From Candidatus Cloacimonadota bacterium (lineage in GTDB: Bacteria > Cloacimonadota > Cloacimonadia > Cloacimonadales > TCS61), in the NCBI GenBank assembly GCA_027064945.1, contig JAMOPB010000237.1, positions 1-45,632 on the forward strand: a stretch of DNA of 45,632 nt, given 5' to 3'. Under the pieces are notes generated by a model. It searched no databases. It was not told where the DNA came from and saw only the letters and a program-made list of their open reading frames with translations. Made by a program: the position numbers and the translations under genes. Each line of letters opens with the position of its first letter. Position 1 is the stretch's first letter. Positions 12,187-36,280 of this stretch are shown in pieces.

Positions 12187-12200
12187 TTATTATTCCTTTT

Positions 12201-18841: not shown

Positions 18842-19456
18842 TTATTCTAATCCATATGAATATGATTTTCTTATTTTTGTATCGAATGCAGGAGCTGGAG
18901 CAGGTTTAACTTCTTTAGATTGACCTGTAATTTTATCTAAAAAGTTTGCAGCTTTTATGCCACTTTCAGTAGGCTGTAGACCATATTTGGCAGTTTTTTC
19001 AACATTATTTTGGAATGTTTTAACACCTTTAGATATAATATTTTCTGGTTTTGGAACTGTTTTATCATTTAAAACTTCACCAGTATTTGTGATGTGTGTG
19101 CCGCTTGGTAAAGTTACACCTGCATTAATTTTATGACCAGGGTGTACTTTATCTGGTTTTGGAACTGTTTGTTCAGCCGGCGCTTTAACTTCGACTGTTT
19201 TGTTACCGAGATTAGTATGTTTCTGTGTTTCAGCTGCTAAATCTTTTTGTTCAGCCGGCTGTTCAACTGTTTCTTCATTTTTCTTATTGAAAAATTCTTT
19301 AGCGGTTTTTAATGCGGGATCAAGATGCCCTGTTTTATATGCATAATAAGTACCTCCTGCAAGAGCTGCTAAACCTGCTGCTGTTGCTAGTTTACCTTTA
19401 TGTTTAGAAACAAATTCTTTTGCTTTTTGTACAATAGATTCATGAATTATTTCCAT
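18842..19456 (-). CDS. YtxH-like membrane-anchored protein, paralog of 19574-19993
   Basis: KAKEFVSKHKGKLATAAGLAALAGGTYYAYKTGH aligns with KAKDFVVKNKGKLAALAGAAALAGAGAYYAHQH of the neighbouring gene. N-terminal MEIIHESI leader. Confidence 0.5.
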   Translation of the reverse strand: MEIIHESIVQKAKEFVSKHKGKLATAAGLAALAGGTYYAYKTGHLDPALKTAKEFFNKKNEETVEQPAEQKDLAAETQKHTNLGNKTVEVKAPAEQTVPKPDKVHPGHKINAGVTLPSGTHITNTGEVLNDKTVPKPENIISKGVKTFQNNVEKTAKYGLQPTESGIKAANFLDKITGQSKEVKPAPAPAFDTKIRKSYSYGLE

Positions 19457-19520
19457 TATTAAATCCTTTTTGTAATTTTATACAGTTATTTGGGCATAGA
19501 TTTCTAAATGCGCAGTTGCT

Positions 19521-19560
19521 AAAAAAACAATAACGAGATTCGCAGCTGCGAATCTCGTTA
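19521..19560 (-). terminator. intrinsic terminator after 19574-19993
   Basis: Perfect 30-nt palindrome taacgagattcgcag/ctgcgaatctcgtta (19531-19560), preceded on plus by aaaaaaacaa. Confidence 0.75.
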
Positions 19561-19573
19561 AATGATAATCAGA

Positions 19574-19993
19574 TTATTTTGTTTCGTTTCCTGAGAAAGT
19601 TTCTTTAACTTTTTCTGCTATATCGCCAGCTTTTTCTTTAACAGTTTCAGCTGCTTGACCAGCTTTTTCTTTAACAGTTTCAACTGCTTCGCCAGCTTTT
19701 TCTTTAGCGTTTTCTAGTGCTTCGCCAGCTTGATTTTTAAGAGCTTCTACTTGATCAGGATGTTGATGTGCATAATAAGCACCAGCACCTGCAAGAGCCG
19801 CTGCTCCAGCTAAAGCTGCTAATTTACCTTTGTTTTTTACAACAAAATCTTTAGCTTTTTTAAGTGTATCGCCAGCTGCTTCAACGATATATACATATCT
19901 TTCAGCAGTTGGAGTACCAGCTGCTTCTTCTAAAATAGTAGTTTTAGCTTGAAGTACTGCGTTTTCTACAATTACATCGAATAAATGTGCCAT
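19574..19993 (-). CDS. YtxH/LEA-like protein with 11-residue amphipathic repeats
   Basis: Ala/Gly hydrophobic helix followed by KEKAGEAVETV KEKAGQAAETV KEKAGDIAEKV, encoded by 33-bp tandem repeats at 19626-19757. Confidence 0.5.
   Translation of the reverse strand: MAHLFDVIVENAVLQAKTTILEEAAGTPTAERYVYIVEAAGDTLKKAKDFVVKNKGKLAALAGAAALAGAGAYYAHQHPDQVEALKNQAGEALENAKEKAGEAVETVKEKAGQAAETVKEKAGDIAEKVKETFSGNETK
19626..19757 (-). repeat. in-frame 33-bp tandem repeat x4 (11-residue amphipathic repeat)
   Basis: ccagctttttctttaacagtttcagctgcttga and variants at 19626, 19659, 19692 and 19725. Confidence 0.85.
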
Positions 19994-20008
19994 ATTTCTT
20001 TCCTTTAA

Positions 20009-20425
20009 TTAAAGAATTTCAAGTTTAGCTGCAATTTTAGCCGCTAGGTCTGCGCTTTCTTGCACTAAATCTTCTTCTTTAGTTTCTTCAGCTTCGCCAG
20101 CTTCAGGAGCTTCACCAGCTTCAGGAGCTTTTTCACCTTCTTCAGCTTCAACTTCTTCTGCTTTAACTACTTTGTAACCAGCAGCTTCTAGTTGTTTTTT
20201 AAGTTCTTCGAGTTCTTCTTCGCTAGGTACAAATTCATCCATAGCTTCTGTTATGATTTTTTCATAAAGTTTACTAACAGTATCAACTTCTTCTTTAAGA
20301 ATCGCGCCACTTTCTTGAATTACTCTGTGGATTGTGCTATTTAGAGCAGCTGCTGCTAAATCCATAGCTGCTGCAGCACTCGCTTCAGCGATTAAATCTT
20401 CAAAAACGATTACATTTTTTTCCAT
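20009..20425 (-). CDS. acidic Ala/Glu-rich hypothetical protein (138 aa)
   Basis: ORF with AAAGGATATTTAAT before the ATG. N-terminus MEKNVIVFEDLIAEAS. PEAGEAPEAGEA repeat. Confidence 0.5.
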   Translation of the reverse strand: MEKNVIVFEDLIAEASAAAAMDLAAAALNSTIHRVIQESGAILKEEVDTVSKLYEKIITEAMDEFVPSEEELEELKKQLEAAGYKVVKAEEVEAEEGEKAPEAGEAPEAGEAEETKEEDLVQESADLAAKIAAKLEIL

Positions 20426-20485
20426 ATTAAATATCCTTTATGGGAATTTTTATATTACAGGTTTTAGTTAAAGCAAACTAGAAAA

Positions 20486-21331
20486 CTAGTTTGCTTCTTC
20501 GTTGTCTAATCCAATCCCTGCCACTTCAGCGGGATTGAATGGTACGTTTATGCCAGCTTCTTTTAACGCGTTTACGAAAATAAAAGGTGCAACAATTGCT
20601 GCAATTTTAGCAACTGCTGATTTAAATGCTTCAATTTTTTCAGCAAGCGTGTTTCCAAAAATATCAGAATATCCTTCTGGTAAATTGTTTTTATAATCTT
20701 CAATTTGTTTGAAGATTCTTGAAGGAATTAACGTGTTTTCTATAGCATGTGCGACCGCATTTTCTGCACCCAGATATTTAGCAACTGCTTCAGGATCGTT
20801 TTTATCCAGAATACCAGTTTTAGCACATTTGATTATCAAACCTTTAATGCCAGGTGCTAGAATACGTTTTGCTTCACATCCATTTTGTACATCTTCGAAT
20901 AATAATTCAGATTTTAAATTTGGTTTATTAAATTCATGTTCTAAAATTAAATTGAAACTTCTTTTATAATGTTTAAGCATCTCGTCTTCTGATAATACTT
21001 CGTAATCGATAGCTGGCGATACAGTACGCGGAGAAACATCCGCTTCTTGTAAAATTTGACCAGCTAGAACCATAGCTTCAGTAATCAATTTATCGTAAGC
21101 TGCTTTAGCAGCTTCGCTTTTGCTACCAATAATTGTTTCAAAAATGTGCTCAAAAAATATTGCATCTTTTTCTGCTTTTTTGAGCATATCTTTTTTATCG
21201 AAACCTTTTATTTTTTTAACACCTTGGGGCCCCGATTGTATCCCACAGTTGCGTCCTTCTTCGATCATTTCTAGAGCCTTGCGAGCAGTCTCCAGTGTCT
21301 CGAATTTTTCTTTTTCAGAAAATCCTATCAT
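20486..21331 (-). CDS. hypothetical protein (281 aa)
   Basis: ORF in a tightly packed minus-strand operon. No domain recognised. Confidence 0.5.
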   Translation of the reverse strand: MIGFSEKEKFETLETARKALEMIEEGRNCGIQSGPQGVKKIKGFDKKDMLKKAEKDAIFFEHIFETIIGSKSEAAKAAYDKLITEAMVLAGQILQEADVSPRTVSPAIDYEVLSEDEMLKHYKRSFNLILEHEFNKPNLKSELLFEDVQNGCEAKRILAPGIKGLIIKCAKTGILDKNDPEAVAKYLGAENAVAHAIENTLIPSRIFKQIEDYKNNLPEGYSDIFGNTLAEKIEAFKSAVAKIAAIVAPFIFVNALKEAGINVPFNPAEVAGIGLDNEEAN

Positions 21332-21347
21332 CGAAATTCCTTATTAA

Positions 21348-23948
21348 TTAATGTTTTTTCTTTGGTAAAGATATATTTTTATATAAGCCGCGTGATGGAT
21401 CCATTAAGAAATCATAATTATTACGCAACTCTCTAATCGGGATTTTGGTCTTTGCTCCTCTATATAAATAAGGTACCCCAACATTATTCATATACACATA
21501 TGCATCATTGCGACCGTAAATTATTACATTGAAGTATGTTATTCCGTATACTTTATCTAGAAACTTGATCACAGAATCTGGTGAATTATAAGTAATTCCT
21601 GAGAAAGTATCCGACATAAGAACATATGTGAATTTTGCCAAATCCTGAATAACAGCACCATCAAAAGTTAATAACCCTACATTGCTTGGAGTTAATAATG
21701 TACTGAAATGTAGAATATCTTTGGAAATAATATCTGCCTCCACATCATTTCTACGAGAATTATAAATGAAATTATCAAATGCATATCCAAAAAAGTTAAT
21801 TAATACAGGTTTTAGATAATATTTGAAATAAATTTCTAGTAAATGTTCAGCTAAAGGTTCTTCATTTATTTTTTCAGAAATTTTTTTAGAAGCAATTTTT
21901 GCTGAAGCAATTTTACGTAAATAATCTTCAGGGAAAAGATTATCATATTCGCTAATATATTGAGCAATTTCATCATTAAATATAAAACATTTATTCACAT
22001 TCTTAATAAATTTTTCAATCGCAGCTGCATATCCCGGAGATATGTTCTCAATTTCTTTAAGTTCTTCATCAGATAACACATATTCTTTTAGCATCCAATT
22101 AATATATTTAAGACCATAAAATAATTCAAGTTGTTTAATAGCATTATCATAATCAGTTGCTGTTTTTATAGACGCTATGTAACCAGTAATTTTTGTAATT
22201 GAAAAATCAACAATTTCTATATATGCTAAGATTTTAATTAAAATTTTTTCTATTTTATGTTTAATAATGCCACTTAGATGTTTGATTGTTTTAGAAATTG
22301 CTTTTGCTGCATTATTGATGATTGATTGCACCATACGTTCAGCAACAGTATCGTTATTTAAAAGGTTACCAATTTTACTAAATGCATTATTTAATTCGCT
22401 TCGGATACTAGCGCGAATATGCCCAATACTGATAGTTAACCCTTGACGAGTTATAATATTTTGTACGATTTTTTCGATATTATCGGCTTCATAGGTACGT
22501 ACTTTGAAACATTTCCCGATATCATCTAAAAGATCTTCTATATCTTCTTTTAATCTATCTAATAATATTTCATCTTTAGAGAGTTTTCTCTGATCCCAAG
22601 CTTGCTGAAAACTGTCTTTACGCTCTTTTAATTTGTCAGTTTCATCACAAATTTCATTAATATAATTAATATCATTTTTAAAAATTTCAAAAATAAAATA
22701 ACTCAAATCTGTTTTATGGTTTAAAAATTTATCGTATGTGATTACTTTACGTGATAAATCAGATACTGATTTATTTTTTTTCAGACCTTCATAAAATTCT
22801 GCAACTACTTGAGAAATAAATTTATCTTTTTTAGGATTTTCTGGATCGGTATCTAGTAACTCTTTAGTTAAATAATTACGAGTATAATCGCCTATCTGTT
22901 TAAGCGTGCGCTGCAATTTAAGTTTCAAGGAATTCTTAATGTTGTAATCAGACAGCTTATATGATGTTGACCAATCAAGTAATCTTTTTTCACCTGTACA
23001 GATAGCTGCATACTCGCGTGTTATCACCGGTATAAAAGAATCCATTTGTGCGGTAAGATCTTTCTGTAGTACATTACTATCTAAAGCTTGCTCAATTTGA
23101 TTTCTGTATTCCAGTTTCTTTTCATCTTGCGGTGAAAGGCCGTATTCTGTATATTTTTCTAACATGTCTTGTGTCATAGGTCGGTAACTGAAATCAGTCA
23201 CTATGTTTCTTGATTTACCCATATATATCAAGAACCCTACAACATCTTGAATATCTTTATCCCTAATATGTTCAAAGTATTCTGATAATACTGTAATATT
23301 TTTTTCAAGCGGTGTAACAACAGGATTTTTGCCTTTTAATGCACGTTGCCAATCTAGCGAAACACTTTTTTCAATTATTTTGTCTTGTATTTTATATCCG
23401 CTCGCTGTGATGTGAATATTTTTCACAAGTTCTTTGAATTTTTGTCTCATATTATCTAGATTTCCACCTACTGTGCTTCTGAATACAAAGTTGTATAAGT
23501 TCTCATCTTGTAGCACAATTAACAGAACTCTAGTTCTATGAACAACATTGTCTCTGTTTTTCGGATTAAGAATAGAATTTGCATTGTCTGCATCATTGAT
23601 AACAAATCTATCTTCTTTTGGCAACATAGGTCCATTAGATAACAAGATTGCTTGAAAAATTTGAGCTGCTTTATCGCTATCAAATTTTTCCATTTTCAAT
23701 AAATAATATTCATAAATAACCTCAGCAACAGCTGCTCGAACTTCGTTATCTTTTGTATATTGAGCACCTCTTACAATTTCTTTATAGAGAACCGGATAAA
23801 ATAAACGGTGCCTGAACATAGGATCATATCTGAGATCTTCAATAAAAGCTTTAAGGCGGAGTGCAGCTTGCTCATGAAGTGTTTCTTGTATCGGTTTTGG
23901 CGGTTTTTTATTTTTAGATGTTTTTTTAGAAGATGTACCACTGGCCAT
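21348..23948 (-). CDS. large hypothetical protein (866 aa)
   Basis: Long ORF with a basic N-terminus (SSKKTSKNKKPPKP). No domain recognised. Confidence 0.55.
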   Translation of the reverse strand: MASGTSSKKTSKNKKPPKPIQETLHEQAALRLKAFIEDLRYDPMFRHRLFYPVLYKEIVRGAQYTKDNEVRAAVAEVIYEYYLLKMEKFDSDKAAQIFQAILLSNGPMLPKEDRFVINDADNANSILNPKNRDNVVHRTRVLLIVLQDENLYNFVFRSTVGGNLDNMRQKFKELVKNIHITASGYKIQDKIIEKSVSLDWQRALKGKNPVVTPLEKNITVLSEYFEHIRDKDIQDVVGFLIYMGKSRNIVTDFSYRPMTQDMLEKYTEYGLSPQDEKKLEYRNQIEQALDSNVLQKDLTAQMDSFIPVITREYAAICTGEKRLLDWSTSYKLSDYNIKNSLKLKLQRTLKQIGDYTRNYLTKELLDTDPENPKKDKFISQVVAEFYEGLKKNKSVSDLSRKVITYDKFLNHKTDLSYFIFEIFKNDINYINEICDETDKLKERKDSFQQAWDQRKLSKDEILLDRLKEDIEDLLDDIGKCFKVRTYEADNIEKIVQNIITRQGLTISIGHIRASIRSELNNAFSKIGNLLNNDTVAERMVQSIINNAAKAISKTIKHLSGIIKHKIEKILIKILAYIEIVDFSITKITGYIASIKTATDYDNAIKQLELFYGLKYINWMLKEYVLSDEELKEIENISPGYAAAIEKFIKNVNKCFIFNDEIAQYISEYDNLFPEDYLRKIASAKIASKKISEKINEEPLAEHLLEIYFKYYLKPVLINFFGYAFDNFIYNSRRNDVEADIISKDILHFSTLLTPSNVGLLTFDGAVIQDLAKFTYVLMSDTFSGITYNSPDSVIKFLDKVYGITYFNVIIYGRNDAYVYMNNVGVPYLYRGAKTKIPIRELRNNYDFLMDPSRGLYKNISLPKKKH

Positions 23949-23960
23949 TATTAGTCCTTA

Positions 23961-24176
23961 TCATTTTATAAATACTTTATTCATAGCTTTATCCACTCCT
24001 TTAACTATATTTTCAGGCACCCAGAGTTCAGTTTCATTCACAGCATTTTTAAGTTGTTTAAGCTGAATTCCTCTTAATATTTGTTTCATTACATATAATC
24101 CTGCCCAGTTGGCCGGCCCTTCGCACATACGTTTATCATAAGATAAACATAGGTTTCTTATTTCCACGACTTTCAT
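23961..24176 (-). CDS. hypothetical protein (71 aa)
   Basis: Small ORF coupled to the upstream gene by a 1-nt overlap at 24176. Confidence 0.45.
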   Translation of the reverse strand: MKVVEIRNLCLSYDKRMCEGPANWAGLYVMKQILRGIQLKQLKNAVNETELWVPENIVKGVDKAMNKVFIK

Positions 24177-24484
24177 CAGATTTCCTTTAAATTAACAATT
24201 GGTATTTTGAGTTTAGGAGCTCTTTTTGTTTGATTATTATTGGCCTGTGGGTTAGAAGAAGGCATTTCTAATTCATAAATTTCAACTTCACCTTCAAAAG
24301 TTTTATCAATTTTTGTAGAAGTTGATTGGTTGGTTTCTAAAGATCGGCTGATAGAATCTGCTGGCTGCTGACCAGGCTCGACAGATTGTTTAGATTTTAA
24401 ATTAGAACTGTTTATATTTGTCTGTTCCGGATTGAGCAATTGCTGTTTTTTCTTTTTAAAATTAAATCCTTCTTCTAAACCCAT
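24176..24484 (-). CDS. hypothetical protein (102 aa), polar low-complexity
   Basis: ORF follows 24494-25705 after a 9-nt gap. Q/N/S-rich. Confidence 0.45.
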   Translation of the reverse strand: MGLEEGFNFKKKKQQLLNPEQTNINSSNLKSKQSVEPGQQPADSISRSLETNQSTSTKIDKTFEGEVEIYELEMPSSNPQANNNQTKRAPKLKIPIVNLKEI

Positions 24485-24493
24485 TGTACCTCC

Positions 24494-25705
24494 TTAAAAA
24501 GGATTGTTATTTTGAAACTGATTTTTATTGAAATTTGAAGAGCCGAAATTTTTATTGTTTGGTTTGGCGTGTTCTGCTGCTTTACCTTCTTTAAAGAATT
24601 CATTATCACGTCTATTGAGAGCTGGTCTATTTTTACTTTCTTTGCTTATTTGATAAGCAAGATTTCTTAAATCACTGTCTAACTGTTTGCTGAGGTCGTG
24701 TCCGATTCTTACGTATTCCGGATCCTTAGAATTATTAAATGTGTCAATAATTTTTTGAACATTTTCAGAAACTTTGTTTACAACTTCAAGTAATTTATAC
24801 ATATTTTTATCGCGTGCAAGTCTCGCTATGTTGCGGAAAAGCGCCTCATTTAACATACCGCGTTTTAATCCATTTTCGTATACGCCAAACACTTTATCAT
24901 CAACATTACTTGCTTTCATGATTTTATAAAGTGCTTCTAATAATGTGATATAAAATTTAATTATTTTAGAACCTACACATCTCGCATAATCGTATTCTTT
25001 GTGTGAATTTGTAATTTTTTCTATAAATCTTGTAAATTTATTAGATTCTGATGGATTCCAGCCAACGATTTTCTGACATTCGTCAAATAAATCTGCAATT
25101 TCGCGAGCATCAATCATTGATAAAATCTCTTTTTTAGTACCTATACCATATTTATTCAAATCAACAGTAAGGAATTTACCAATTACTCTGCCCGCCATCT
25201 CAAAACCATTGATGATATTCTTTTTATCTTTGTCACTTAATCCTAGTAACACAGTTAATGCAAGAATTGTGGTAACAGCAGCTGGTGCAAAAATGCCTCC
25301 GAGGAAATATCCTGCAGCTCCCGCCAACGAACCTCCTACAACGATACTGCCAACGACAGATTTGATTCCTTCTGAAATTACATCATAAGAAGTGTTTAAT
25401 TTATATTCGATGTCGTATGGAAGTTGTTCATGCTCTGTAATCAATTTATATTTAACATCTAAATATGTTTCTAAAAACAGATGTTCATATATCCAGCTAA
25501 CAATTATTTTTTGTTTATCAGATCTAGTTTTCGCTTCTAAAAACATTTCGTATTCAGGAGACTGGATGAATTCTTTATAAAGGTTATCAACCGGAGGCCT
25601 ATAATCCATGTTTTCAAAAATTGTATTTTCTGATTCGTTAAATTTATTAAAAATTGGTAAATACATTTCATTAAAAATTTTGTATGATAATGTAGATTTA
25701 TTCAT
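24494..25705 (-). CDS. membrane protein with glycine-zipper TM segment (403 aa)
   Basis: VVGSIVVGGSLAGAAGYFLGGIFAPAAVTTILALTVLLGL. AAAGGAAAAATTA before ATG 25705. Confidence 0.5.
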   Translation of the reverse strand: MNKSTLSYKIFNEMYLPIFNKFNESENTIFENMDYRPPVDNLYKEFIQSPEYEMFLEAKTRSDKQKIIVSWIYEHLFLETYLDVKYKLITEHEQLPYDIEYKLNTSYDVISEGIKSVVGSIVVGGSLAGAAGYFLGGIFAPAAVTTILALTVLLGLSDKDKKNIINGFEMAGRVIGKFLTVDLNKYGIGTKKEILSMIDAREIADLFDECQKIVGWNPSESNKFTRFIEKITNSHKEYDYARCVGSKIIKFYITLLEALYKIMKASNVDDKVFGVYENGLKRGMLNEALFRNIARLARDKNMYKLLEVVNKVSENVQKIIDTFNNSKDPEYVRIGHDLSKQLDSDLRNLAYQISKESKNRPALNRRDNEFFKEGKAAEHAKPNNKNFGSSNFNKNQFQNNNPF

Positions 25706-26210: not shown

Positions 26211-26764
26211 TATATTTCATATCCATCTTTAAAAGTTTGTTCAAGAATTGATTTGACAAGCGCGTTGTCTGTTGCCTTAGCTGATTCCTGATCGGAAGAA
26301 CCACTACTAACAAGAGCAGTAGCCTCTTCGAATTTCTTAAGAACTTCAAGAAATTTATTTTCATCAGCCGCGGTTTCTGTAGATTTTTTCCATCTGAGAT
26401 AATTGCTGAGTTTATCATTTTGGAGTTTACTTTTTTGATTAACGTAATCCTGTATTAACTTTTCATATTTGATAATTGTATCTGTTACGATTTGCTGTAT
26501 TTCAAGTTGTTTAGAAATAGCTATCTGCAGCTGCGAACGAAGCTTATAATTTTTACTATCGGTAGCTTCAAGCTGTGAATAATTTGTATAAATAAATTTA
26601 TCTAACATTTTCTCTTTATCACGTAAATTTTTAATACGTGTTTCGAGCTCAGCTATTTTATCGTCAATTTCTTGATATATTTTATCAACTTCGTTGTCTA
26701 TTTTACTATAATCAACTACAACTTCGACCTCTTTAATTTTAGCACTCATCATGTACCTTTTCAA
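26210..26764 (-). CDS. coiled-coil hypothetical protein (184 aa)
   Basis: ORF with heptad-like K/E/Q-rich sequence. It overlaps the upstream gene by 26 nt and is followed by a strong terminator. Confidence 0.5.
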   Translation of the reverse strand: MKRYMMSAKIKEVEVVVDYSKIDNEVDKIYQEIDDKIAELETRIKNLRDKEKMLDKFIYTNYSQLEATDSKNYKLRSQLQIAISKQLEIQQIVTDTIIKYEKLIQDYVNQKSKLQNDKLSNYLRWKKSTETAADENKFLEVLKKFEEATALVSSGSSDQESAKATDNALVKSILEQTFKDGYEI

Positions 26765-28304
26765 GTTCTCTAATAGCTTTTAAAGCTATATTATCAATTT
26801 CCGCAACTGTTCTTTCCATATCAGTTTCGGGTATTTCGCCCCACTGATTGATATAATGTTCAGGATTAACAGCACGCAGCATGTCATTTTTCATTTTATT
26901 ATAGAACACCTGTGCGGTTTTTTCGTGCTCGAAAAATTTTTGTAACGCAGCAATCATGCGATCCGCATATAGAGAATCGAAATATTTTTTAATAGCTTGA
27001 TAATTTTTCTTAGATTTGTATTTACTTGAATAAGTAAATCCGTTAGCTAATTCATCTTCGCTGTTTTTTAATTGTGAACCTATTAATGTATACATATACA
27101 TATTATCGAGGATAGAATATTTCGGATTCATAAAATAAAAGAAATCAAGTTGATTCATTTCTCCGAGGTACTTAAACATTTCTAAAATATCGTGATTTGG
27201 TTTTAATTTGCGTTTATTTCTATTTTTAAATACATTTGCTAATGCTTCTGCTATCATTTGCTGCTTATTGTATGCGAAATGAGTTCTTTCGCCTTCCTCA
27301 AACATATATTGAACTGCAGCTACATAACCTATTTTAACTTTTGTAATGTCAGCAGACAATAGTGAAATTATGTTTCTATGGATAAGTGATATGTATGTAG
27401 ACATTAGTGCGCGAAGCTCTAATGGATTCCTATTTTTAATTGCTATTAATATCAAATAACGCACTATTGTGTTGAGCATTACATACATATCGCTAAGTTG
27501 CAATTCATAAATAAATTTCGAAAGACGCGAACTTTTTGCGTGATATTTTTTCATCCATGATAATGTGATTGAAATAATAGTATTTGCAAATGCTTTCATC
27601 TGCGGATGATTAGAAAGAATATTTGTGATTTCTTTGTTATATAATTCAATTGCGATTTTTTGTTTGTTATAACCTACTAACTCATCTTTATATTTTTTAA
27701 TAAATTCACGAGCAATTTTTTCTAAATTTTTAAGTAAATAATGCCACGTAATTAAAGTTACTTTATCGATACCTGCGTCGTCTACCGTTAATCCAACATG
27801 AATATCAAGATTGTTTAATACTTCTTTTTTATCGTCAGGCATATCAGGATCAGATTTGAATTCTGCCTCTACAAATTCATTAATTTTTTCTTTTACCCAG
27901 TCGACAAGATTTTGAAAAAAATCAATATCGAATTGTAGATCTTCATTTTTACCCAGTGCGCCAGAAACTATTTTATCATGGTTTTCTTCATTGTGAAATG
28001 TTTTTATTTGCTCAATAAAATGATTGTCGAAAATTTCGTCTATATTATACTTGTTCATAAATTCTTCGATAATTTCTTCAACTCGTTCTGGTGCAACAGG
28101 TATTTTACGTTCTCTTTTGTCATCAAGAGACATTTTTGCTTTAAACGCTTTTATTCTCTGTTCTTCTTTAAGTTCTTCTTCAGTAGGTTCATGTTTAGTG
28201 TCGTCTGTTTCTACTTCGACCACTTGGTCGCGTACATCATCATCTTGTATATCATCTGTTACTATACCGTTTTTCTCGATAAGATTTTCAATAATATCTG
28301 CCAT
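26739..28304 (-). CDS. hypothetical protein (521 aa)
   Basis: GAAAGGTAAAGA-ATG start. GATAGATATTA motif 52 nt upstream. N-terminus MADIIENLIE. Confidence 0.55.
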   Translation of the reverse strand: MADIIENLIEKNGIVTDDIQDDDVRDQVVEVETDDTKHEPTEEELKEEQRIKAFKAKMSLDDKRERKIPVAPERVEEIIEEFMNKYNIDEIFDNHFIEQIKTFHNEENHDKIVSGALGKNEDLQFDIDFFQNLVDWVKEKINEFVEAEFKSDPDMPDDKKEVLNNLDIHVGLTVDDAGIDKVTLITWHYLLKNLEKIAREFIKKYKDELVGYNKQKIAIELYNKEITNILSNHPQMKAFANTIISITLSWMKKYHAKSSRLSKFIYELQLSDMYVMLNTIVRYLILIAIKNRNPLELRALMSTYISLIHRNIISLLSADITKVKIGYVAAVQYMFEEGERTHFAYNKQQMIAEALANVFKNRNKRKLKPNHDILEMFKYLGEMNQLDFFYFMNPKYSILDNMYMYTLIGSQLKNSEDELANGFTYSSKYKSKKNYQAIKKYFDSLYADRMIAALQKFFEHEKTAQVFYNKMKNDMLRAVNPEHYINQWGEIPETDMERTVAEIDNIALKAIRELEKVHDEC

Positions 28305-30044: not shown

Positions 30045-30082
30045 CGTCGACCTATATCATAGCAAATATTAAGGAGGACCTT

Positions 30083-30919
30083 TTGAAATTTGATATTTAT
30101 GAAGGCATTGTACTTGATCGCGATGATCCGAAAAAACAAGGTCGATATTATGTATATATTCCTGAATTGCAATTTAACGATCTAACTGATAACCCTCCAA
30201 TTAATAATAAATATTCAGGTGTATGGTGTTATAATTGCGTTGGAAATAATTTTATTAGATACACAGAGGCTGAACTCAGAGATTTTAAAAACACTAACAG
30301 TTATGGCAGTTATATGCCTTTAAAACCTGGTACGCATGTGCTAGTTGGTTTTCCTGAAAATTCAAATAAAACATATTGGGATTCTGGATATATATTAAAT
30401 ATAATTACTTTTGAAAAACCGCCTAACGAAGACCGTGATGATTTTTATTTGATTTATACAACAGATAAAGAATCTTGGGCTTTTATCGATGAGAATGGAG
30501 AACAATTCGCGATTAGTTTTCATAATGGAAAAAGCAATGTATGGGGTAAAGATGATGTTATTCATTTATCCAAAAAAAATGGTACAGTTGCTGAGATTCA
30601 TGATGATCATATAACTTTATTTCACAATTCCGGCAATTATGTACATATAGACGAGAACCAGATAACTGCTAAAATTGGTGGCAGTTTTATTAAATTGTCA
30701 AATGACCATATTTCTATTAAAGCGGAATCTGTTTACATAGAAGGAAGTTCATTGGTTGCTATAGAAGGTGGTGCCGTTCAAATAAATGATGGAGTTACTG
30801 TGCCAGATTCAGCTGACAGTAAATCGGATATAGCAAAACCATCACTCGATGCTATAAAGGAAATAAATGATAAAGATAAAGAATTGCACAGAAAGATTAA
30901 TAATGGAAGAGCAGAATAA
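30083..30919 (+). CDS. baseplate central spike / hub protein (gp5/VgrG-type OB fold plus beta-helix)
   Basis: TTG start at 30083, 5 nt after AAGGAGG. YEGIVLDRDDPKKQGRYYVYIPEL...PLKPGTHVLVGFPENS matches the Phage_base_V/gp5 OB-fold pattern. The C-terminus is repetitive beta-strand (ITLFHNSGNYVHIDENQITAKIGGSFIKLSNDHISIKAESVYIEG). The 33 upstream codons in the ORF track cross a terminator hairpin. Confidence 0.7.
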   Translation: MKFDIYEGIVLDRDDPKKQGRYYVYIPELQFNDLTDNPPINNKYSGVWCYNCVGNNFIRYTEAELRDFKNTNSYGSYMPLKPGTHVLVGFPENSNKTYWDSGYILNIITFEKPPNEDRDDFYLIYTTDKESWAFIDENGEQFAISFHNGKSNVWGKDDVIHLSKKNGTVAEIHDDHITLFHNSGNYVHIDENQITAKIGGSFIKLSNDHISIKAESVYIEGSSLVAIEGGAVQINDGVTVPDSADSKSDIAKPSLDAIKEINDKDKELHRKINNGRAE

Positions 30920-31049
30920 AAAAAATAAAAAAAGATCATCCCGGGATGATATCATTAAACGCGCAAAAACTAAATTAACATGCGACGGAATTAATGGACC
31001 TTGTATCATAACTTCCAAAAAACAATTTATTTATCCTCCATATCTATAA
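30903..31049 (+). CDS. small basic protein (48 aa) downstream of the spike
   Basis: ATG 30903 overlaps the end of the spike gene. KKNKKRSSR then CDGINGPC. Function unknown. Confidence 0.35.
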   Translation: MEEQNKKNKKRSSRDDIIKRAKTKLTCDGINGPCIITSKKQFIYPPYL

Positions 31050-31060
31050 AGGATTCATTG

Positions 31061-31570
31061 ATGATAATTGGTAACCCTGCTCTTGAAAAACGTTTTTCCA
31101 CTAATGGATTATTTGAAACAAGGCCCAAAGGTGTTATGATATGTGACAGTTGGAATAATGGTGTTTATAAATTTGAACAAACTGCCATCGATACCGCGCG
31201 GCCTGATTGGCCGCGCGTCTGGGATGAATATCTTAAAAAATATTCATTAGTAGATCGCGCATTATTTTTCCCAACTCATTATGTAATAGATACAATTAAC
31301 AATTTACCACAAGTCATTTCTACTCGTCCTTTAAGTTATCGATCATTAATACCTGACTATGAAGAATGGATAACTATTATGATAATTGGAGATAGTAATC
31401 GAGATATTTATACTCCAAGATACTATATGTCAATTGCAGATTTTATAATCAATCCGATTTTTCGAGGAATCCAATCTTGGAAAATGGTGCCTCAACTTGG
31501 TAAAAATGTAGTTTTAAAAAATCTGGGTAGCGGTTTTGTACCTCAAATGCTTGAAAAATATTTGCATTAA
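31061..31570 (+). CDS. hypothetical protein, possible Amidase_2/PGRP-like fold (degenerate)
   Basis: ATG 31061 with AAAGGA 6 nt upstream. KGVMICDS...THYVIDTINNLPQVISTRP...WITIMIIGDSN..YTPRYYMSIADFI parallels the T7-lysozyme-type order of strands, but the zinc ligands are not conserved. Confidence 0.3.
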   Translation: MIIGNPALEKRFSTNGLFETRPKGVMICDSWNNGVYKFEQTAIDTARPDWPRVWDEYLKKYSLVDRALFFPTHYVIDTINNLPQVISTRPLSYRSLIPDYEEWITIMIIGDSNRDIYTPRYYMSIADFIINPIFRGIQSWKMVPQLGKNVVLKNLGSGFVPQMLEKYLH

Positions 31571-31624
31571 CTAATCTTTGAAAAATATATAATATCATAT
31601 TGCACCTCCTTTCATAGTTTTTTA

Positions 31625-31660
31625 GAGACCGCGTCTGCGGTCTCATTTTTTGCTTTTTTT
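31625..31660 (+). terminator. intrinsic terminator of the plus-strand spike operon
   Basis: Stem gagaccgc/gcggtctc with loop gtct, followed by attttttgcttttttt. Confidence 0.85.
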
Positions 31661-31708
31661 CAAAAAAAACAAAAAACAAGAATCTAGCTTGCTGTTTGCT
31701 AGATTCTT
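31661..31708 (-). terminator. intrinsic terminator after 31714-32190
   Basis: 12-bp stem caagaatctagc (31676-31687)/gctagattcttg (31697-31708). A-run at 31661-31675 on plus. Confidence 0.85.
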
Positions 31709-31713
31709 GTTTG

Positions 31714-32190
31714 TTATTTTTGATTAGCTATTATTGTTGGTGATCCGTACAGTTTACCTTTGATATAATTATACGCAGGTCGTGCTGCTGCATTTGCAGC
31801 TCCTGCAGCACCTGCACCGATTGCTGCACCAGCTTTAGCACCCTCACTACCACCTGCAATTGCTCCAATTGCACCACCAACTAGTGCACCAGGCACTGCA
31901 CCATGTAAAGCACGTGAAGCCACATTTTTTACAGTGTAGACATCTCTCATTGTCACATTAGGATCTTTACGCGCTAATGCTCCAATTGCGCCTTCTCTTC
32001 CGTATTCTACTCCAGCTTGAGGTTCTCCAACTTCTCTACCAACTTCTACACCTGTGTTTTTTTCGAAAAATCTCGAAACTGGCACAATAGGTGTTGTAGC
32101 AATAGATGCAAGATCGCTGCTACTTAGCGCGCCTTTGTTAATAGCTTCGCGCGCTTTTTCACTGGCTTCAAATATAATTTTTTCTCTCAT
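31714..32190 (-). CDS. glycine-zipper protein, paralog of 35735-36280
   Basis: GVEYGREGAIGALARKDPNVTMRDVYTVKNVASRA..GALVGGAIGAIAGGSEGAKAGAAIGAGAAGAA..RPAYNYIKGK aligns with the 35735-36280 product. MREKIIFEAS leader. Confidence 0.55.
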   Translation of the reverse strand: MREKIIFEASEKAREAINKGALSSSDLASIATTPIVPVSRFFEKNTGVEVGREVGEPQAGVEYGREGAIGALARKDPNVTMRDVYTVKNVASRALHGAVPGALVGGAIGAIAGGSEGAKAGAAIGAGAAGAANAAARPAYNYIKGKLYGSPTIIANQK

Positions 32191-32196
32191 ATTATG

Positions 32197-32769
32197 TCAT
32201 CCTTTTTTTGGCATCAAATAACAATAAATATCGTGATCACAAATTGCTTCAATATCTTTATCATTTTTTAATTTATTCAACATGTTTTTACCGATTTCTT
32301 CAGCATCCACAAACACAAAATAATTATCTGCTTTAATTTTATCTCTATCATCACCATATGAAGGCATAAGTTTGAAATAACTTGGCGCGTTTATTACAAA
32401 ATCTTTTATTAATTCATATGATTCTTTTTCATTAATAAATCTTGGAAATACTGTTGAAGAATATTTATCATAAAACGTGATTGCATATGGCTTATTTTTA
32501 GGAAACGGCTTACAGTTTGCGCAGTGAAAGTCTTTAGATTGCAAAACAACTGGTTCTGCGTAAGCTACTAGTTTACCGTTTTTTTCAAATGCGTATACGC
32601 CACAACAAGCATCATTTAATTCTCTTAGCACATCATTGATGTTTGCTGATTTCGGCTCATCAGATAATTCATCAAGATGTCTTGACACGTAATTTTTAAA
32701 CGATATAGATTTAGTTGCTGGTTTAATAATAAATTTTAAAGAATTTATTTGTCCCGTTGCCTCCAGCAA
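32197..32769 (-). CDS. Cys-containing hypothetical protein (190 aa, TTG start in track)
   Basis: The ORF is open from the upstream stop. The only in-frame start candidate is TTG 32769, with no clear SD. Confidence 0.4.
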   Translation of the reverse strand: MLEATGQINSLKFIIKPATKSISFKNYVSRHLDELSDEPKSANINDVLRELNDACCGVYAFEKNGKLVAYAEPVVLQSKDFHCANCKPFPKNKPYAITFYDKYSSTVFPRFINEKESYELIKDFVINAPSYFKLMPSYGDDRDKIKADNYFVFVDAEEIGKNMLNKLKNDKDIEAICDHDIYCYLMPKKG

Positions 32770-32811
32770 TAATGCTTTTGCGCGATATGTGATATATTTT
32801 TTATCCGTGTT

Positions 32812-33699
32812 TTATCCTTTATTTAATTTATTTGTTAAATATGCGTACAAACCAACACCGATTAATCCTGTTTTTGTTACAACACCATTCCAAAAAGCAT
32901 GTAATACTTGCGCAATCAATGTACCGCGATCTTCGATTGCTTGTTTTATTTTATAATTATTCGGGTTTTTTGAATATAATTCGATAAATTGCGATTGCAA
33001 TTGTGTTTTTTTGTGAAAATATGTTGTGGATAAGTGAAATACAAACGAAAACAATCTCACAATAACTAGAAACAATACAGGAAAACCGAGTGCGGCAAAC
33101 TGCATAATATATGAAAGAGCTTCAGCGCCTGCTAAAGCAGAGGTCATTAAAAAACCTTTATACTGTTTAACGGCTGCACGTTTAAAGATTTCTTCAGTGA
33201 ACGGCGCACATAAAATTGCACCAATATATAACCCCATAGGTCCGAATAACGATACGCACGTAGTCATCACAACAGTATTTAATATATAAATAAAAATAAA
33301 CATCACCGCAAGTATTAATGCATCTTTTGCTTGAATATTTTTTAATTCTTCTTTGAATTCATTGATAATAAAATCAAAAGTGAATATTTTATCCAGATCT
33401 TGATATTTGCCTTGCTCGATATTTTTAATTATTTGATCTATTTTGCGTTTATCGATTCCTTGTTTGTCTAAAAACTGTATTATTCTCTGTTGTTGAGAAT
33501 AATACATGCGTTTCACACGTTCAATATCTTTTTCAGACTGAAATGCTTTGAAAAGAGAATCATATATTTTTTCTAAAAATGCGTTAATCGGATTGCTGAG
33601 TTTAGCAAATTTTTCTGTGATATCAAAATCAGATGCACGCGATTTAACCGAAGCTGTTTTAGCAATAGCTACAGCTTCAGTTATTATCATTTCGCGCAT
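32812..33699 (-). CDS. CPBP (CAAX protease / Abi, PF02517-type) intramembrane protease candidate
   Basis: Multi-TM protein with PFTEEIFKR (EExxxR motif 1), a mid-TM His (FSFVFH, approximate FxxxH) and LHAFWNG (HxxxN motif 3) in the expected order. MREMIITEAV leader. Confidence 0.55.
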   Translation of the reverse strand: MREMIITEAVAIAKTASVKSRASDFDITEKFAKLSNPINAFLEKIYDSLFKAFQSEKDIERVKRMYYSQQQRIIQFLDKQGIDKRKIDQIIKNIEQGKYQDLDKIFTFDFIINEFKEELKNIQAKDALILAVMFIFIYILNTVVMTTCVSLFGPMGLYIGAILCAPFTEEIFKRAAVKQYKGFLMTSALAGAEALSYIMQFAALGFPVLFLVIVRLFSFVFHLSTTYFHKKTQLQSQFIELYSKNPNNYKIKQAIEDRGTLIAQVLHAFWNGVVTKTGLIGVGLYAYLTNKLNKG

Positions 33700-33701
33700 T
33701 A

Positions 33702-34214
33702 TTAACCTTTTTTAATAATTTTTCTAGGATCTGTCTTAATTGCTTCTTTAACTGCTTTAAGAAATTCTTGTTTTGCTTGATCGTTAGGGACACCATTTTT
33801 AATTAATTTAAATATCTCATATAATCTTGATATTGCAAATATTGCAGCAAGCGGTGTCATTATTGGCGCTGCAATCAATGTTACGCCGGGTACAAACCCA
33901 AGTCCGATAACAACTGCAATAACATCAATTATAAAGAAAAGTACAGCCATAGCAAATTGAGCGAAATAATCACTTTTAGACATTAGATGTTGATCACTTT
34001 TTTCAAGTAAATCTTCAACTTTTTCTCCCCAAGCAACTATTTTTTCCCACTGCTTTGTATTAATTTTACCTTGTTTATGCATTTTTTCAGCCCAATCATA
34101 AACTTCTGTGTATATATCTACAAGTTTATTATGGTTGGTCATAATTTGGTGTTCTAGATCTTGAGAAACTGATTCTTCTATTATTTGCATTGTTAAACAA
34201 CTTAATTCTGCCAT
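33702..34214 (-). CDS. membrane protein (170 aa, two TM helices)
   Basis: FAMAVLFFIIDVIAVVIGLGFVPGVTLIAAPIMTPLAAIFAI. N-terminal region contains MQIIEES. Confidence 0.5.
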   Translation of the reverse strand: MAELSCLTMQIIEESVSQDLEHQIMTNHNKLVDIYTEVYDWAEKMHKQGKINTKQWEKIVAWGEKVEDLLEKSDQHLMSKSDYFAQFAMAVLFFIIDVIAVVIGLGFVPGVTLIAAPIMTPLAAIFAISRLYEIFKLIKNGVPNDQAKQEFLKAVKEAIKTDPRKIIKKG

Positions 34215-34215
34215 A

Positions 34216-34740
34216 TTAATTTCCTTTTCTTTTATTTACTAGCGGACCGCTCCCGTCATACTGGGTACCAATTGCTTTGATGATTTCACGCTCATATTCG
34301 CGTAAATCTTTTGGATTATCAAATGTTTTTATAATAACTATCCAGTTATTTTTATATTCATCTAGGTTTTTTGGCATCAGATTATCAGGATTTCCGCTTT
34401 GCTTATTTTGTTCGATTTGTCTTTCAAGTTCTTGAAAAAATTTCTTTTTGTATTGATTTTGTGAATCATCGATATTTCGGACAAAATTGTTTATATGATG
34501 ATTCATACGGTACTGCAGGCTGTTTTCTAGTTTACCTACATATACTGGTAAGTATGCTGATTTAACAGTTTGCTGTTTACCACAACACTGAAAATTATAT
34601 TCATAATCACCACTATGGAAAGGATCTAAATACATATAAATAGCATATTTATGTTTGCGATAATCGAAACGAGCAACTCTCGGGCTAACTTTGTCATATT
34701 TAAGATTTGTGGTTTTGTAGCTGTCTGATGTTATTAGCAT
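34216..34740 (-). CDS. GIY-YIG homing endonuclease
   Basis: KYAIYMYLDP (GIY-like), PVYVGK (YIG), YRMNHH (conserved Arg/His), REYEREIIKAIG (catalytic Glu) and LVN, in I-TevI-like order. Confidence 0.7.
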   Translation of the reverse strand: MLITSDSYKTTNLKYDKVSPRVARFDYRKHKYAIYMYLDPFHSGDYEYNFQCCGKQQTVKSAYLPVYVGKLENSLQYRMNHHINNFVRNIDDSQNQYKKKFFQELERQIEQNKQSGNPDNLMPKNLDEYKNNWIVIIKTFDNPKDLREYEREIIKAIGTQYDGSGPLVNKRKGN

Positions 34741-35084
34741 TTTAACTTCTTCCTTAATTCTGTAAGCTGTTTGCTGTTTATCTTGCTGCAGATCGAATTT
34801 TCTTTTGCACGGATAAATAATTCGATAAATTGTCTAAAATCTTCGCGAGTTGCTTTTTGGCGATAACTACGTTTAAAACTTGTATGAAACATTTTATGAC
34901 ATTCATCACATAAACATATACCATTTTCCGGGTCGAAGCGTTTTTCTGGAAAATAAGTTGCGTGGTCTAAATGATGCGCGTGTCTATTTTTAATCGATCC
35001 ACAAATTTGACATACCTTATCACGTCTAATCACGGTGGCGCGCCAAATACGGTAATCGCGGGTTCGACGCCAGTTTTTGCTCAT
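34734..35084 (-). CDS. HNH homing endonuclease
   Basis: WRATVIRRDKVCQICGS..HAHHLDH....ENGICLCDECHKMFH is a classic phage HNH pattern with CxxC...CxxC and H-N-H. Confidence 0.9.
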   Translation of the reverse strand: MSKNWRRTRDYRIWRATVIRRDKVCQICGSIKNRHAHHLDHATYFPEKRFDPENGICLCDECHKMFHTSFKRSYRQKATREDFRQFIELFIRAKENSICSKINSKQLTELRKKLKC

Positions 35085-35326
35085 TTGTTTTTCTTTTTAT
35101 CAGATTTTGTGATTTTATTAGTCAGATAGATTGAACCTAGTGCTCCGCCTGCTGCTCCTAATCCTGCTAATTTAACATGAAGTGCAGGCATAGTTAAATC
35201 GCCTGCTAATGTATCAGCTAGCGCGTGACCAGCAACCGCGCCACCTGCAAGTCCCGCACCTAACATGGCTAACCTTGCTTTTGGATTTTCTTTCAATATT
35301 TTTCTTGCTTTTTCCGCAATACTCAT
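35081..35326 (-). CDS. small glycine-zipper membrane protein (81 aa)
   Basis: LAMLGAGLAGGAVAGHALA....LAGLGAAGGALGSIYL. MSIAEKARKIL leader. Lys-rich C-terminus. Confidence 0.55.
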   Translation of the reverse strand: MSIAEKARKILKENPKARLAMLGAGLAGGAVAGHALADTLAGDLTMPALHVKLAGLGAAGGALGSIYLTNKITKSDKKKNK

Positions 35327-35327
35327 T

Positions 35328-35735
35328 TTATAATCCTTTGCATTCGCGTTCTAAATCATGAATTTCTTTTTTAAATCTCTCGATAATTTGATCTAAAGAA
35401 ACTTTTTTAGCTTCGTCGTAATGTATTTTTACTTTTTGACCTTTTATTTCAGGGTTATCAATTGCATATTTGATATCCTGATCACATTTACTTAAATATT
35501 TTTTAACACTTGCTTTGAATATATCCATCGCGATTGCATAAGGAATTTTTTTACATCTGGTAGATTTTGCAGCTAGTAATTCAGCACGGCGCCAAAATAA
35601 AGCCATCAAGCTTTCAGGTACATTGTATTTTTTTGCCCAAGACTTAATAACATTAGAATTTGTTTCAAATCCACGGACTACCGGACAACGTGCTTCAAAT
35701 ATCAATTTAGCTTTTTCTGCAATTAGATCTCTCAT
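35328..35735 (-). CDS. hypothetical protein (135 aa)
   Basis: Coupled ORF. MRDLIAEKAKLIFEA leader. Confidence 0.5.
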   Translation of the reverse strand: MRDLIAEKAKLIFEARCPVVRGFETNSNVIKSWAKKYNVPESLMALFWRRAELLAAKSTRCKKIPYAIAMDIFKASVKKYLSKCDQDIKYAIDNPEIKGQKVKIHYDEAKKVSLDQIIERFKKEIHDLERECKGL

Positions 35736-36280
35736 TAGCTTACCCCGTATTTCTTTTTCATATTTTCAAGTTCAGCTTCTTTCTTGCCGCGCCAATAATT
35801 ATATCCTGGTTTGATTAAAGCACGACCAGCTGTTTTTAATAAACCAGCACCTGCCCCCAGCAGTGCACCTCCTCCAACACCAATCAACAAATTTAACCCT
35901 TCATTGCCTCTAGCATGACTAGCTAATGCTGCTCCTGTAGCTGCTCCTGCTGCAGCACCACCAACTACGTCTTTTGTTAAACCTTGTTTTGCACGCGCTA
36001 TAATATTTTTTCTCGTATAAACATCTGTCCATTTGATATTTTTATCTTTTGCAGCTAACGCCCCTACTGCACCTTCTCTTTCATATTTTTCACCAATTTG
36101 CTCGTGCCCAACTTTACGTCCAGCAAGAATTGAATTTATACGATTATACTCAGAACCATGAAACCAATCAGAACTGCGTTTGGCTGTTTCATGTTCGGCG
36201 TACTTATTTATTAAAGCACGTGCTTTTTGTTTTGCACGTTCCCTGGCTTCTTTTATACTGTCTGATGTACTACGAGCCAT
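35735..36280 (-). CDS. glycine-zipper protein, paralog of 31714-32190
   Basis: GEKYEREGAVGALAAKDKNIKWTDVYTRKNIIARA..VVGGAAAGAATGAALA..IGVGGGALLGAGAGLL..KPGYNYWRGK. Confidence 0.55.
   Translation of the reverse strand: MARSTSDSIKEARERAKQKARALINKYAEHETAKRSSDWFHGSEYNRINSILAGRKVGHEQIGEKYEREGAVGALAAKDKNIKWTDVYTRKNIIARAKQGLTKDVVGGAAAGAATGAALASHARGNEGLNLLIGVGGGALLGAGAGLLKTAGRALIKPGYNYWRGKKEAELENMKKKYGVS

Follow-up and report, generated by a model that had tools for sequence, protein, structure and literature searches.

Putative T4-type prohead-protease sites at the N-termini of small basic and membrane-type proteins of an uncultured large phage

The DNA analysed here, a stretch of 45,632 nucleotides (nt) referred to as the window, is a part of the 66,241-nt metagenomic contig ERZ27262656:k141_169530 (ENA) and has a G+C content of ~31%. 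Between positions 18842 and 36280 it carries a series of minus-strand genes whose products begin with a short leader of the form (M)x(1-12)-[I/L/V]-[I/L/V]-x-E, which an earlier note on this DNA had likened to the capsid-targeting and cleavage signals of phage T4. According to family searches, beta-type subunits of a split multisubunit RNA polymerase are encoded at either end of the window (91-1704, 41296-42636 and 43017-45011), and baseplate and virion proteins are also encoded in it; the source is apparently a large uncultured phage in which RNA polymerase genes of the phiKZ/AR9 style occur together with a T4-type head. The leader-bearing proteins and two companions discussed with them (20486 and 35735) are listed below; proteins are named by their first coordinate, pI is the isoelectric point, lengths are in amino acids (aa), and a slash marks the predicted cut after Glu.

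18842-19456, minus strand, basic protein of 204 aa (pI 9.3), leader MEIIHE/SIV followed by KAKEFVxKxKGKLA and a Gly/Ala-zipper segment
19574-19993, minus strand, 139 aa, weak paralog of 18842, sites DVIVE/NA, TILEE/AAG and YIVE/AAGD in the first 38 residues
20009-20425, minus strand, acidic Ala/Glu-rich protein of 138 aa (pI 4.2), six Phi-Phi-x-E sites
20486-21331, minus strand, 281 aa, candidate scaffold or core protein, five Phi-Phi-x-E sites, e.g. KLITE/AM and ILQE/AD
26739-28304, minus strand, 521 aa, leader MADIIE/NLIE/KNG followed by a very acidic stretch
31714-32190, minus strand, basic protein of 158 aa (pI 9.6), leader MREKIIFE/AS, C-terminal half of predicted Gly-zipper type (weak PF13441 matches in orthologs)
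32812-33699, minus strand, 295 aa, PrsW/CPBP-like intramembrane metalloprotease, leader MREMIITE/AV, second site DFDITE/KF (residues 24-28)
33702-34214, minus strand, 170 aa, leader MAELSCLTMQIIEE/SV, hydrophobic segment at residues 81-132
35081-35326, minus strand, very basic Gly-zipper protein of 81 aa (pI 10.1), leader MSIAE/KARK
35328-35735, minus strand, basic soluble protein of 135 aa, leader MRDLIAE/KAK, second site LIFE/AR
35735-36280, minus strand, 181 aa, predicted Gly-zipper paralog of 31714 (E-value 7e-15), SIKE/A in the window copy

All nine N-termini quoted in the earlier note were found at these genes, with an ATG start and an AAAGGA-like ribosome-binding site 6-10 nt upstream. 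The internal Met that the note had taken as the start of 33702 is not needed: the ribosome-binding site precedes the first ATG (MAELSCLTMQIIEES), so the motif QIIEE lies at residues 10-14 of the full-length protein. As a possible tenth leader protein, 35735 was dismissed; its orthologs read SLESAKA, SLEAAKA and SLQAARE, and since they do not have the motif, it is probably not a leader protein. Apart from 20009, 20486 and the protease described below, the carriers are mostly small and basic (pI 9.3-10.1), and most of them possess Gly/Ala-zipper or transmembrane segments, the Gly/Ala-zipper ones being weakly hydrophobic (Kyte-Doolittle value about 1.5). The family PF13441 (Gly-zipper_YMGG) was found as precomputed weak Pfam matches on orthologs of 31714 and 35735, while a scan of the window copies gave no match at E <= 0.01. 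Weak PHROG matches of 19574 and 32812 to tape-measure proteins were ascribed to their Gly/Ala-rich segments and were not used.

Nine of the 43 window proteins have the motif [ILV][ILV]xE somewhere in their first 16 residues, whereas internal windows of equal length contain it in 5.5% of cases. The number of carriers expected from composition is 2.6 if each N-terminus is shuffled and 2.3 if the N-terminal residues are pooled, and none of 5000 shuffles reached nine. The less restrictive [IL]xE is found at 17 of the 43 N-termini (expected 8.9, P = 0.0002). The carriers of [ILV][ILV]xE are also clustered, with 8 among the 19 minus-strand genes in 18842-36280 and 1 among the 24 genes elsewhere (Fisher P = 0.006); these values apply to a motif that was defined post hoc, after viewing the data. 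The description of the carriers as otherwise unrelated was overstated, because 31714 and 35735 are clear paralogs (E-value 7e-15), 18842 and 19574 are weak paralogs (E-value 0.014), and the first 44 residues are common to 31714 and 32812; about eight independent families are left. The note had also described an amphipathic EKAR/EKAK turn after the leader, which the calculation did not bear out: for the first 18 residues, the nine proteins have hydrophobic moments of 0.17-0.37, and the background value is 0.26 +/- 0.14.

Relatives were located via the 866-aa neighbour encoded at 21348-23948 and via the gene at 34216-34740, and their contigs were then fetched. Among orthologs and paralogs the Glu before the presumed cut (P1) and the Ile/Leu/Val residues at P3 and P4 are fixed, while P2 is free (F/E/Q/M or H/Y/Q), and these alignments display the pattern expected for a gp21-type site. 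The five members of the 158-aa family (31714) exhibit IIFE, IIEE, IIEE, IIQE and IIME, each followed by A[SN], with P1, P3 and P4 fixed and P2 free. The six members of the 204-aa family (18842) all conform to M-x(0-1)-[IL][IL]-x-E/S-I with His, Tyr or Gln at P2 (II-H-E/SI, IL-Y-E/SI, LL-H-E/SI, IL-Q-E/SI, LL-Q-E/SI and LL-H-E/SI). All three sites of 19574 are conserved in the relatives L001 and L010, the third one being in register with the N-terminal site of the paralog 18842 and preceded by the two others. Orthologs differ from the window genes by synonymous codon changes with the motif residues unchanged, hence the constraint acts on the protein. The L014 ortholog of 35328 begins with MKRKIIE/KAQLIFE/SR and the L001 ortholog of 26739 with MDIIENLIEKNG; no family or structure match was obtained for 26739 itself.

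The motif is dense in two neighbouring acidic, multi-site proteins. 20009 contains six Phi-Phi-x-E sites against 0.7 expected (P = 1e-4), including VIVFE, LIAE/AS (..DLIAE14/AS), VIQE/SG and IITE/AM; four sites are kept in the 138-aa family, and in 4 relatives the sites persist although their codons have changed synonymously. 20486, which was not listed in the earlier note, is without an N-terminal leader and contains five sites against 1.5 expected (P = 0.017), of which KLITEAM and ILQEAD are kept in L011, L012 and L013. On this basis both proteins look like multiply cleaved scaffold or core proteins rather than cargo. The two genes 19574-19993 and 20009-20425 also contain in-frame tandem DNA repeats, of 33 nt (19600-19749) and of 9-18 nt (20090-20172), which encode EKAGEAVETVK-like and PEAGEA-like peptide units, respectively.

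The earlier note had proposed looking for a prohead protease gene, and such a gene was found 434 nt beyond the left window end, in the same contig. The part of the contig that includes it was analysed as L003 (contig positions 1-19616, reversed, so that window position = 12898 minus L003 position). The predicted head genes, together with the Gly-zipper gene at the left window end, are as follows, negative coordinates lying to the left of window base 1:

-433 to -1221, prohead protease of 262 aa, Peptidase_S77 (T4 gp21 family)
-1245 to -2780, gp23-like capsid protein of 511 aa, next after the protease
1-87, minus strand, first 29 of 139 codons of a Gly-zipper protein that runs off the left window end, the protease being next on the contig
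8249-10507, minus strand, gp20-like portal protein of 752 aa
16989-18773, plus strand, gp17-like large terminase (TerL) of 594 aa

The protease is ~30% identical to annotated gp21 proteins of cyanophages, and its 263-aa ortholog in L001, a syntenic 71-kb relative, matches PF03420 above the cut-off (E-value 1.8e-14) and scores better with S77 (54.2 bits) than with S80 (29.9 bits). In an alignment with the T4 gp21 structure (5jbl in the PDB), its segments ELDHP and GFSLRAVGS fall on their counterparts there, although the match is weak (E-value 0.25). The His of ELDHP and the Ser of GFSLRAVGS would correspond to the gp21 catalytic positions. Phi-Phi-x-E sites are clustered at both ends of the protease, which has an N-terminal site of its own (..QLIME10/Q), and the capsid protein carries the site ..VLLE65/D. 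The capsid protein matches 7x30 in the PDB (E-value 2e-8) and the capsid proteins of the IMG/VR jumbo phages L026 and L027 (E-value 6e-11), which are themselves members of Pfam Gp23 (E-value 4e-33). No direct PHROG or Pfam match was obtained for the portal protein, and its identity is based on transitive homology: BLASTP relates it to L026 and L027 proteins (E-values 6e-31 and 3e-24) that match Pfam Portal_T4 (E-values 3e-21 and 2e-19). TerL belongs to PHROG 2 (E-value 3.5e-33) and is ~26% identical to T4-like terminases. The matches of terminase, portal, S77 protease and capsid protein together indicate that the phage possesses the four T4 head-core gene types gp17, gp20, gp21 and gp23, a kinship with T4 that is visible through profiles only.

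The specificity of gp21 is L/I-X-E, and the capsid-targeting sequences (CTSs) of T4 are 10-19-residue N-terminal propeptides of internal proteins (PMC9026906), while Alt loses just six residues, at ITE-6 (PMC5694885). An Asp in place of the Glu at P1 abolishes processing in T4 and leaves targeting intact (PMC9026906). The T4 sites re-read from NC_000866 are gp67 MEGLIE6, gp68 MLLIPE6, Alt MELITE6, gp22 MLKEQLIAE9/AQ, gp24 MAKINE6LLRE10/S, Inh ..YIAE9, internal proteins (IPs) IPII and IPIII MKTYQEFIAE10/A[RS], gp21 ..LLIE9 and gp23 ..FLTE65/A. The leaders of the window proteins (MEIIHE6/S, MADIIE6NLIE10/K, MRDLIAE7/K, MSIAE5/K, MREKIIFE8/AS and MREMIITE8/AV) match the layout of gp67, gp68, gp22, gp24, Alt and the IPs, with L/I-x-E within about the first 6-19 residues; the layout of 26739 resembles that of gp24. 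BLAST searches with T4 head proteins against the window and L003 revealed no homology to the T4 IPs or to MKTYQEFIAE, what is shared with them being the motif [I]-A-E/A-S only. Like IPI, IPII, IPIII and Alt, the window proteins have a short putative propeptide ending in [I/L]-x-E before a small residue and small, basic mature parts, are accompanied by a gp21-family protease, and are encoded at a locus whose gene content varies between close relatives while the leader persists, as in the T4 IP locus (PMC3012670). Unlike in the IPs, the leaders are often only 5-8 residues long, and most carriers have Gly/Ala-zipper or transmembrane segments, which are absent from the IPs. The composition and site density of 20009 and 20486, and the presence of a site among residues 6-14 or earlier, are reminiscent of gp22, gp67 and gp68, but the two proteins have no detectable homology to them and their genes adjoin the terminase instead of lying between portal and protease. 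The phiKZ-like giants (phiKZ gp175, 201phi2-1, SPN3US gp245; Peptidase_S80) are also large phages with a split multisubunit RNA polymerase, in which cleavage after Glu affects many head or ejection proteins. However, their S80 proteases require a small P3 residue (S/A/G-x-E or A-x-E) and their propeptides usually exceed 100 residues, whereas here P3 is Ile/Leu/Val in all leaders, the leaders are short and the protease scores better as S77; the P3 residues and the higher S77 score speak against processing of the phiKZ type. In SPN3US, the ejection protein gp47 has both a propeptide and a transmembrane helix and is encoded at a plastic locus (PMC5694885).

With a probability of about 0.6, we propose that the N-terminal (M)x(1-12)-[I/L/V]-[I/L/V]-x-E is a site for the gp21-family protease of the phage itself and that its carriers are components of the prohead interior. 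The carriers would co-assemble with the scaffolding core inside a T4-type prohead composed of the gp20-like portal and the gp23-like shell, and the protease would cut them after Glu. The multi-site proteins 20009-20425 and 20486-21331 would be chopped to peptides and lost, like T4 gp22, gp67 and gp68, while the small basic proteins 18842, 31714, 35081 and 35328 and their relatives would lose 5-14 residues and stay with the DNA, like the T4 IPs and Alt. The Gly/Ala-zipper segments suggest that these proteins might act on the membrane of the next host after ejection. The high density of the motif where T4 biology predicts it, i.e. in 20009, 20486 and both ends of the protease, supports this proposal. 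We infer the L/I-x-E specificity of the protease, cleavage at the sites, the head location and the ejection of any carrier from sequence comparisons. The earlier note had suggested that its set of proteins is packaged, trimmed and possibly injected, like typical effector cargo; of these, 20009, like its neighbour 20486, looks more like a scaffold or core protein, and the zipper and transmembrane carriers and the polytopic 32812 fit soluble injected cargo poorly. Injected anti-defence cargo is plausible.

Several observations weigh against this proposal. Of 106 proteins of T4 itself, 31 have [IL]xE among their first 16 residues: it marks all 9 known or likely N-terminally processed gp21 substrates, and also 22 of the 97 non-substrates. 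The motif alone is therefore sensitive, not specific, and by itself weak evidence. The mature parts of the leader proteins were considered as possibly avoiding [IL]xE, as cargo that resists the protease might, but with composition controlled 8 occurrences were observed against 9.6 expected, i.e. there is no depletion. No homolog of the leader proteins was detected among characterised virion proteins. The specificity of the protease is assumed from a relative with ~30% identity, and leaders of 5-8 residues would leave little room for a separate targeting determinant. A polytopic membrane protease such as 32812 is an unlikely capsid passenger. The 866-aa protein (21348-23948) had been considered as a portal from its size and position, and was rejected since it has no family match and the real portal is 8249-10507; since it is not shown to be a head protein, the assignment of the 18842-28304 genes to the head rests on their adjacency to TerL and on the motif itself. 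An AlphaFold2 (AF2) model of the 866-aa protein built with 10 homologs is all-alpha (predicted local distance difference test, pLDDT, 59.7), and Foldseek and phmmer searches against the PDB gave nothing. A tape-measure-like or internal protein is a possible identity. Conservation is very high over the last ~170 residues, and only 9 homologs were found among 5.8 billion proteins. For 35328-35735 a single-sequence AF2 model was too poor for use (pLDDT 50).

One carrier, 32812, has several strongly hydrophobic segments predicted to be transmembrane helices. Its Pfam PrsW score of 22.1 bits is just below the cut-off of 23.5, which a family member from L027 passes with 28.7 bits. An alignment of 30 sequences revealed invariant EExxK, His222 and HxxxN (E169, E170, K173, H222, H267 and N271), so that the predicted protein has a polytopic membrane domain with the motifs that characterise PrsW/CPBP proteins, i.e. 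EExxK/R, a His and HxxxN/D. The phage family shares with PrsW/CPBP (CAAX protease, Abi) the EExxK/R motif, an FxxxH-type His, HxxxN and the multi-helix membrane domain, and differs by an extra soluble N-terminal region of ~120 residues, the sole conserved feature of which is [IL]-x-E near the start. A full HMMER search with 32812 retrieved 157 relatives, from which 138 representatives at <=50% mutual identity were selected. [IL]xE is present in the first 30 residues of 123 of these 138, compared with 52 expected (300 shuffles, maximum 74); the sites accumulate between residues 1 and 30, with a variable P2 and a preference for Ser, Gly or Ala at P1'. The family was seen only in metagenomes, with members on jumbo-phage contigs of 207-273 kb, and in no isolate phage; no close characterised member, phage or cellular, was found, and the literature searched contains no description of a PrsW/CPBP-like family linked to T4-like head modules. 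Four members have the following coordinates:

L025, 10001-11092, PrsW/CPBP-like family member
L026, 10001-10783, PrsW/CPBP-like family member
L027, 9923-10750, PrsW/CPBP-like family member
L028, 10004-10828, PrsW/CPBP-like family member

In L026 and L027, uncultivated virus genomes (UViGs) of 207 and 255 kb, the gene directly adjoins the portal-protease-capsid module, and at these two loci [IL]xE N-termini are found in 11 of the 19 open reading frames (ORFs) of the head module vs 7 of the 41 others (P 0.002). One member of the family, on a 272.6-kb contig, lies among RNA-polymerase subunit genes, and its neighbour is a Gly-zipper protein with the N-terminus MYLALMIEE/SF. L028 (IMG/VR UViG_3300010344_001700), an unrelated contig, has three small paralogous ORFs just upstream of the PrsW/CPBP-like gene (7138-9123), which begin with MYKETLYE/IID, MYKEILFE/IID and MYKDFLHE/III and form a leader-like [IL]xE family.

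Several of the leader proteins are encoded at 31714-36280, where the order of products in the window is 181-135-81-HNH-174-170-295-190-158 aa, and this locus is hypervariable among close relatives. L014 is without four of the genes, L001 and L016 keep only 184-175(-139), and L019 has other leader-bearing genes there (MEQIIEE/R, MTLLQE/S and MELLHE/S). 35081 is absent from L014, L001 and L016, its counterpart in L019 being a 114-aa Gly-zipper protein with MEQIIEE/RAQ; the N-terminus of 33702 is identical in L014, and the gene is absent from L001, L016 and L019. Two further genes of the locus are these:

34734-35084, minus strand, HNH endonuclease (Pfam HNH_2, E-value 1.2e-5), no leader
32197-32769, ORF of 190 aa with a TTG start

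The HNH endonuclease gene occupies a different position in L019 and is absent from L001 and L016; the enzyme may drive gene turnover at 31714-36280. The 190-aa ORF has no ribosome-binding site and is absent from all relatives examined, and together with the TTG codon this makes its start and coding status uncertain.

Since 32812 would be an awkward passenger, two other explanations of the motif stay alive. According to one, which we consider unlikely, the motif is part of an N-terminal helix that spread by descent or module shuffling in an expanded family of small membrane-active proteins and has no link to the protease, serving folding, oligomerisation or membrane association; superinfection exclusion, lysis control and host takeover are candidate functions. 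The paralogies 31714/35735 and 18842/19574, the 44 shared residues of 31714 and 32812, the Gly-zipper or transmembrane segments of most carriers, and a hypervariable locus with an HNH endonuclease, as in accessory-gene islands, are all in keeping with such an origin. It does not account well for the presence of the motif on the apparently unrelated non-membrane proteins 20009, 26739 and 35328, the protease and the capsid protein, for N-termini that are not unusually amphipathic, for carriers co-oriented inside a structural gene block, or for the 35735 lineage, which lost the motif and kept the following helix. The exchange of charged for hydrophobic residues at P2 with P1 and P3 fixed, as well as the tandem sites in 19574, fit a protease site better. 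Quite improbable, in our estimate of almost negligible weight, is that I/E-rich N-termini arose by chance, from AT-rich composition or because the first codons are under selection for translation initiation. The motif is indeed a short one and was defined post hoc, its background rate in T4 is high, and Ile is indeed more frequent in the first 15 residues (11.9% vs 9.0%); yet neither within-N-terminus nor pooled shuffles reached the observed count in 5000 trials, the carriers are clustered in one gene block (Fisher 0.006), the residues are kept in orthologs under synonymous codon change, and the motif was replicated out of sample in the 138-sequence family and two other phages.

The other explanation retains the prohead protease as the enzyme that cuts the leaders, but regards the Gly-zipper proteins, 33702 and 32812 as inner-membrane proteins whose cytoplasmic N-termini dock in the prohead core; cleavage after Glu would free the matured prohead from the membrane or switch a membrane protein on or off. 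In T4, prohead assembly takes place on the inner membrane, and release follows cleavage by gp21 (PMC5694885, PMC9026906). The several strongly hydrophobic segments of 32812, the one long segment of 33702, and the conservation of the PrsW/CPBP-like family beside T4-like head modules, nearly always with an N-terminal [IL]xE, agree with this arrangement. It is made rather improbable, however, by the hypervariable presence of the genes among close relatives, which argues against an essential role in assembly, and by the weakly hydrophobic Gly/Ala-zipper segments (about 1.5 on the Kyte-Doolittle scale), which could stay soluble in the capsid. It also counts against it that, apart from gp40 and gp20, no anchor of this kind is known in T4. 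It is a rather improbable suggestion that the membrane proteins, of both the Gly-zipper type and the PrsW/CPBP-like type seen beside head modules of uncultured AT-rich jumbo phages, are an unrecognised class of prohead-protease substrates, either stored in the capsid and injected, or acting as prohead tethers that are released or activated by cleavage.

Searches for further relatives yielded little. Megablast of 24 kb against isolate phages revealed no resemblance at the DNA level, and no isolate matches were found for the leader proteins or the capsid protein. No close relatives were found by tblastn with the capsid protein, 26739, 35735, 32812, P0033 and P0038, or when single proteins, the A1 alignment and the A3 subgroup were run against IMG/VR, and a metagenome scan gave four short contigs only.

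Some other features of the window deserve mention. The minus-strand block 18842-39146 is flanked by two long intergenic regions, each with an array of repeats of 94-121 nt. The arrays are oppositely oriented, comprise 4 copies (16386-16929) and 5 copies (39257-39976), and are presumably the two to which the earlier note referred; the second, the copies of which are 94-100% identical, also contains palindromes of 32-34 nt, perfect or near-perfect. Both arrays are possibly promoter, regulatory or origin-like elements. The terminase is adjoined by an ORF of 1379 aa (12201-16340) without a PHROG or Pfam match, which belongs to a 14-kb block (1998-16340, with baseplate and portal genes) that separates TerL from the RNA-polymerase beta gene in the window; in L001 the equivalent block is located elsewhere and TerL directly adjoins the RNA-polymerase beta, protease and capsid genes. 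The RNA-polymerase beta-type subunit encoded at 41296-42636 starts with MSLKIDFSLYE/ID and thus has an N-terminal L-x-E, which might be meaningful if this is a virion RNA polymerase as in phiKZ-like phages, and may equally be due to chance.

The leader mechanism as such is already known from T4, and what we describe is probably a further case of it, from a phage lineage that is new and whose putative substrates include unusual ones of the membrane type; the potentially new element is the PrsW/CPBP-like family encoded beside head modules, in which a protease-type motif is conserved at the N-terminus. If the proposed reading of the leaders is true, a few residues would be enough to tell which proteins of this highly divergent, uncultured lineage are head-internal or injected, and would draw attention to a hypervariable locus of cargo genes, the kind of place in which functions in anti-defence or host takeover are to be expected. 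The T4 CTS paradigm would then reach past Straboviridae, to phages in which a T4-type head is found together with a phiKZ/AR9-style split RNA polymerase, and natural leader sequences would become available for the engineering of protein packaging. Should the members of the 32812 family be stored in the capsid and delivered into the membrane of the next host, they would represent a phage-injected intramembrane protease.

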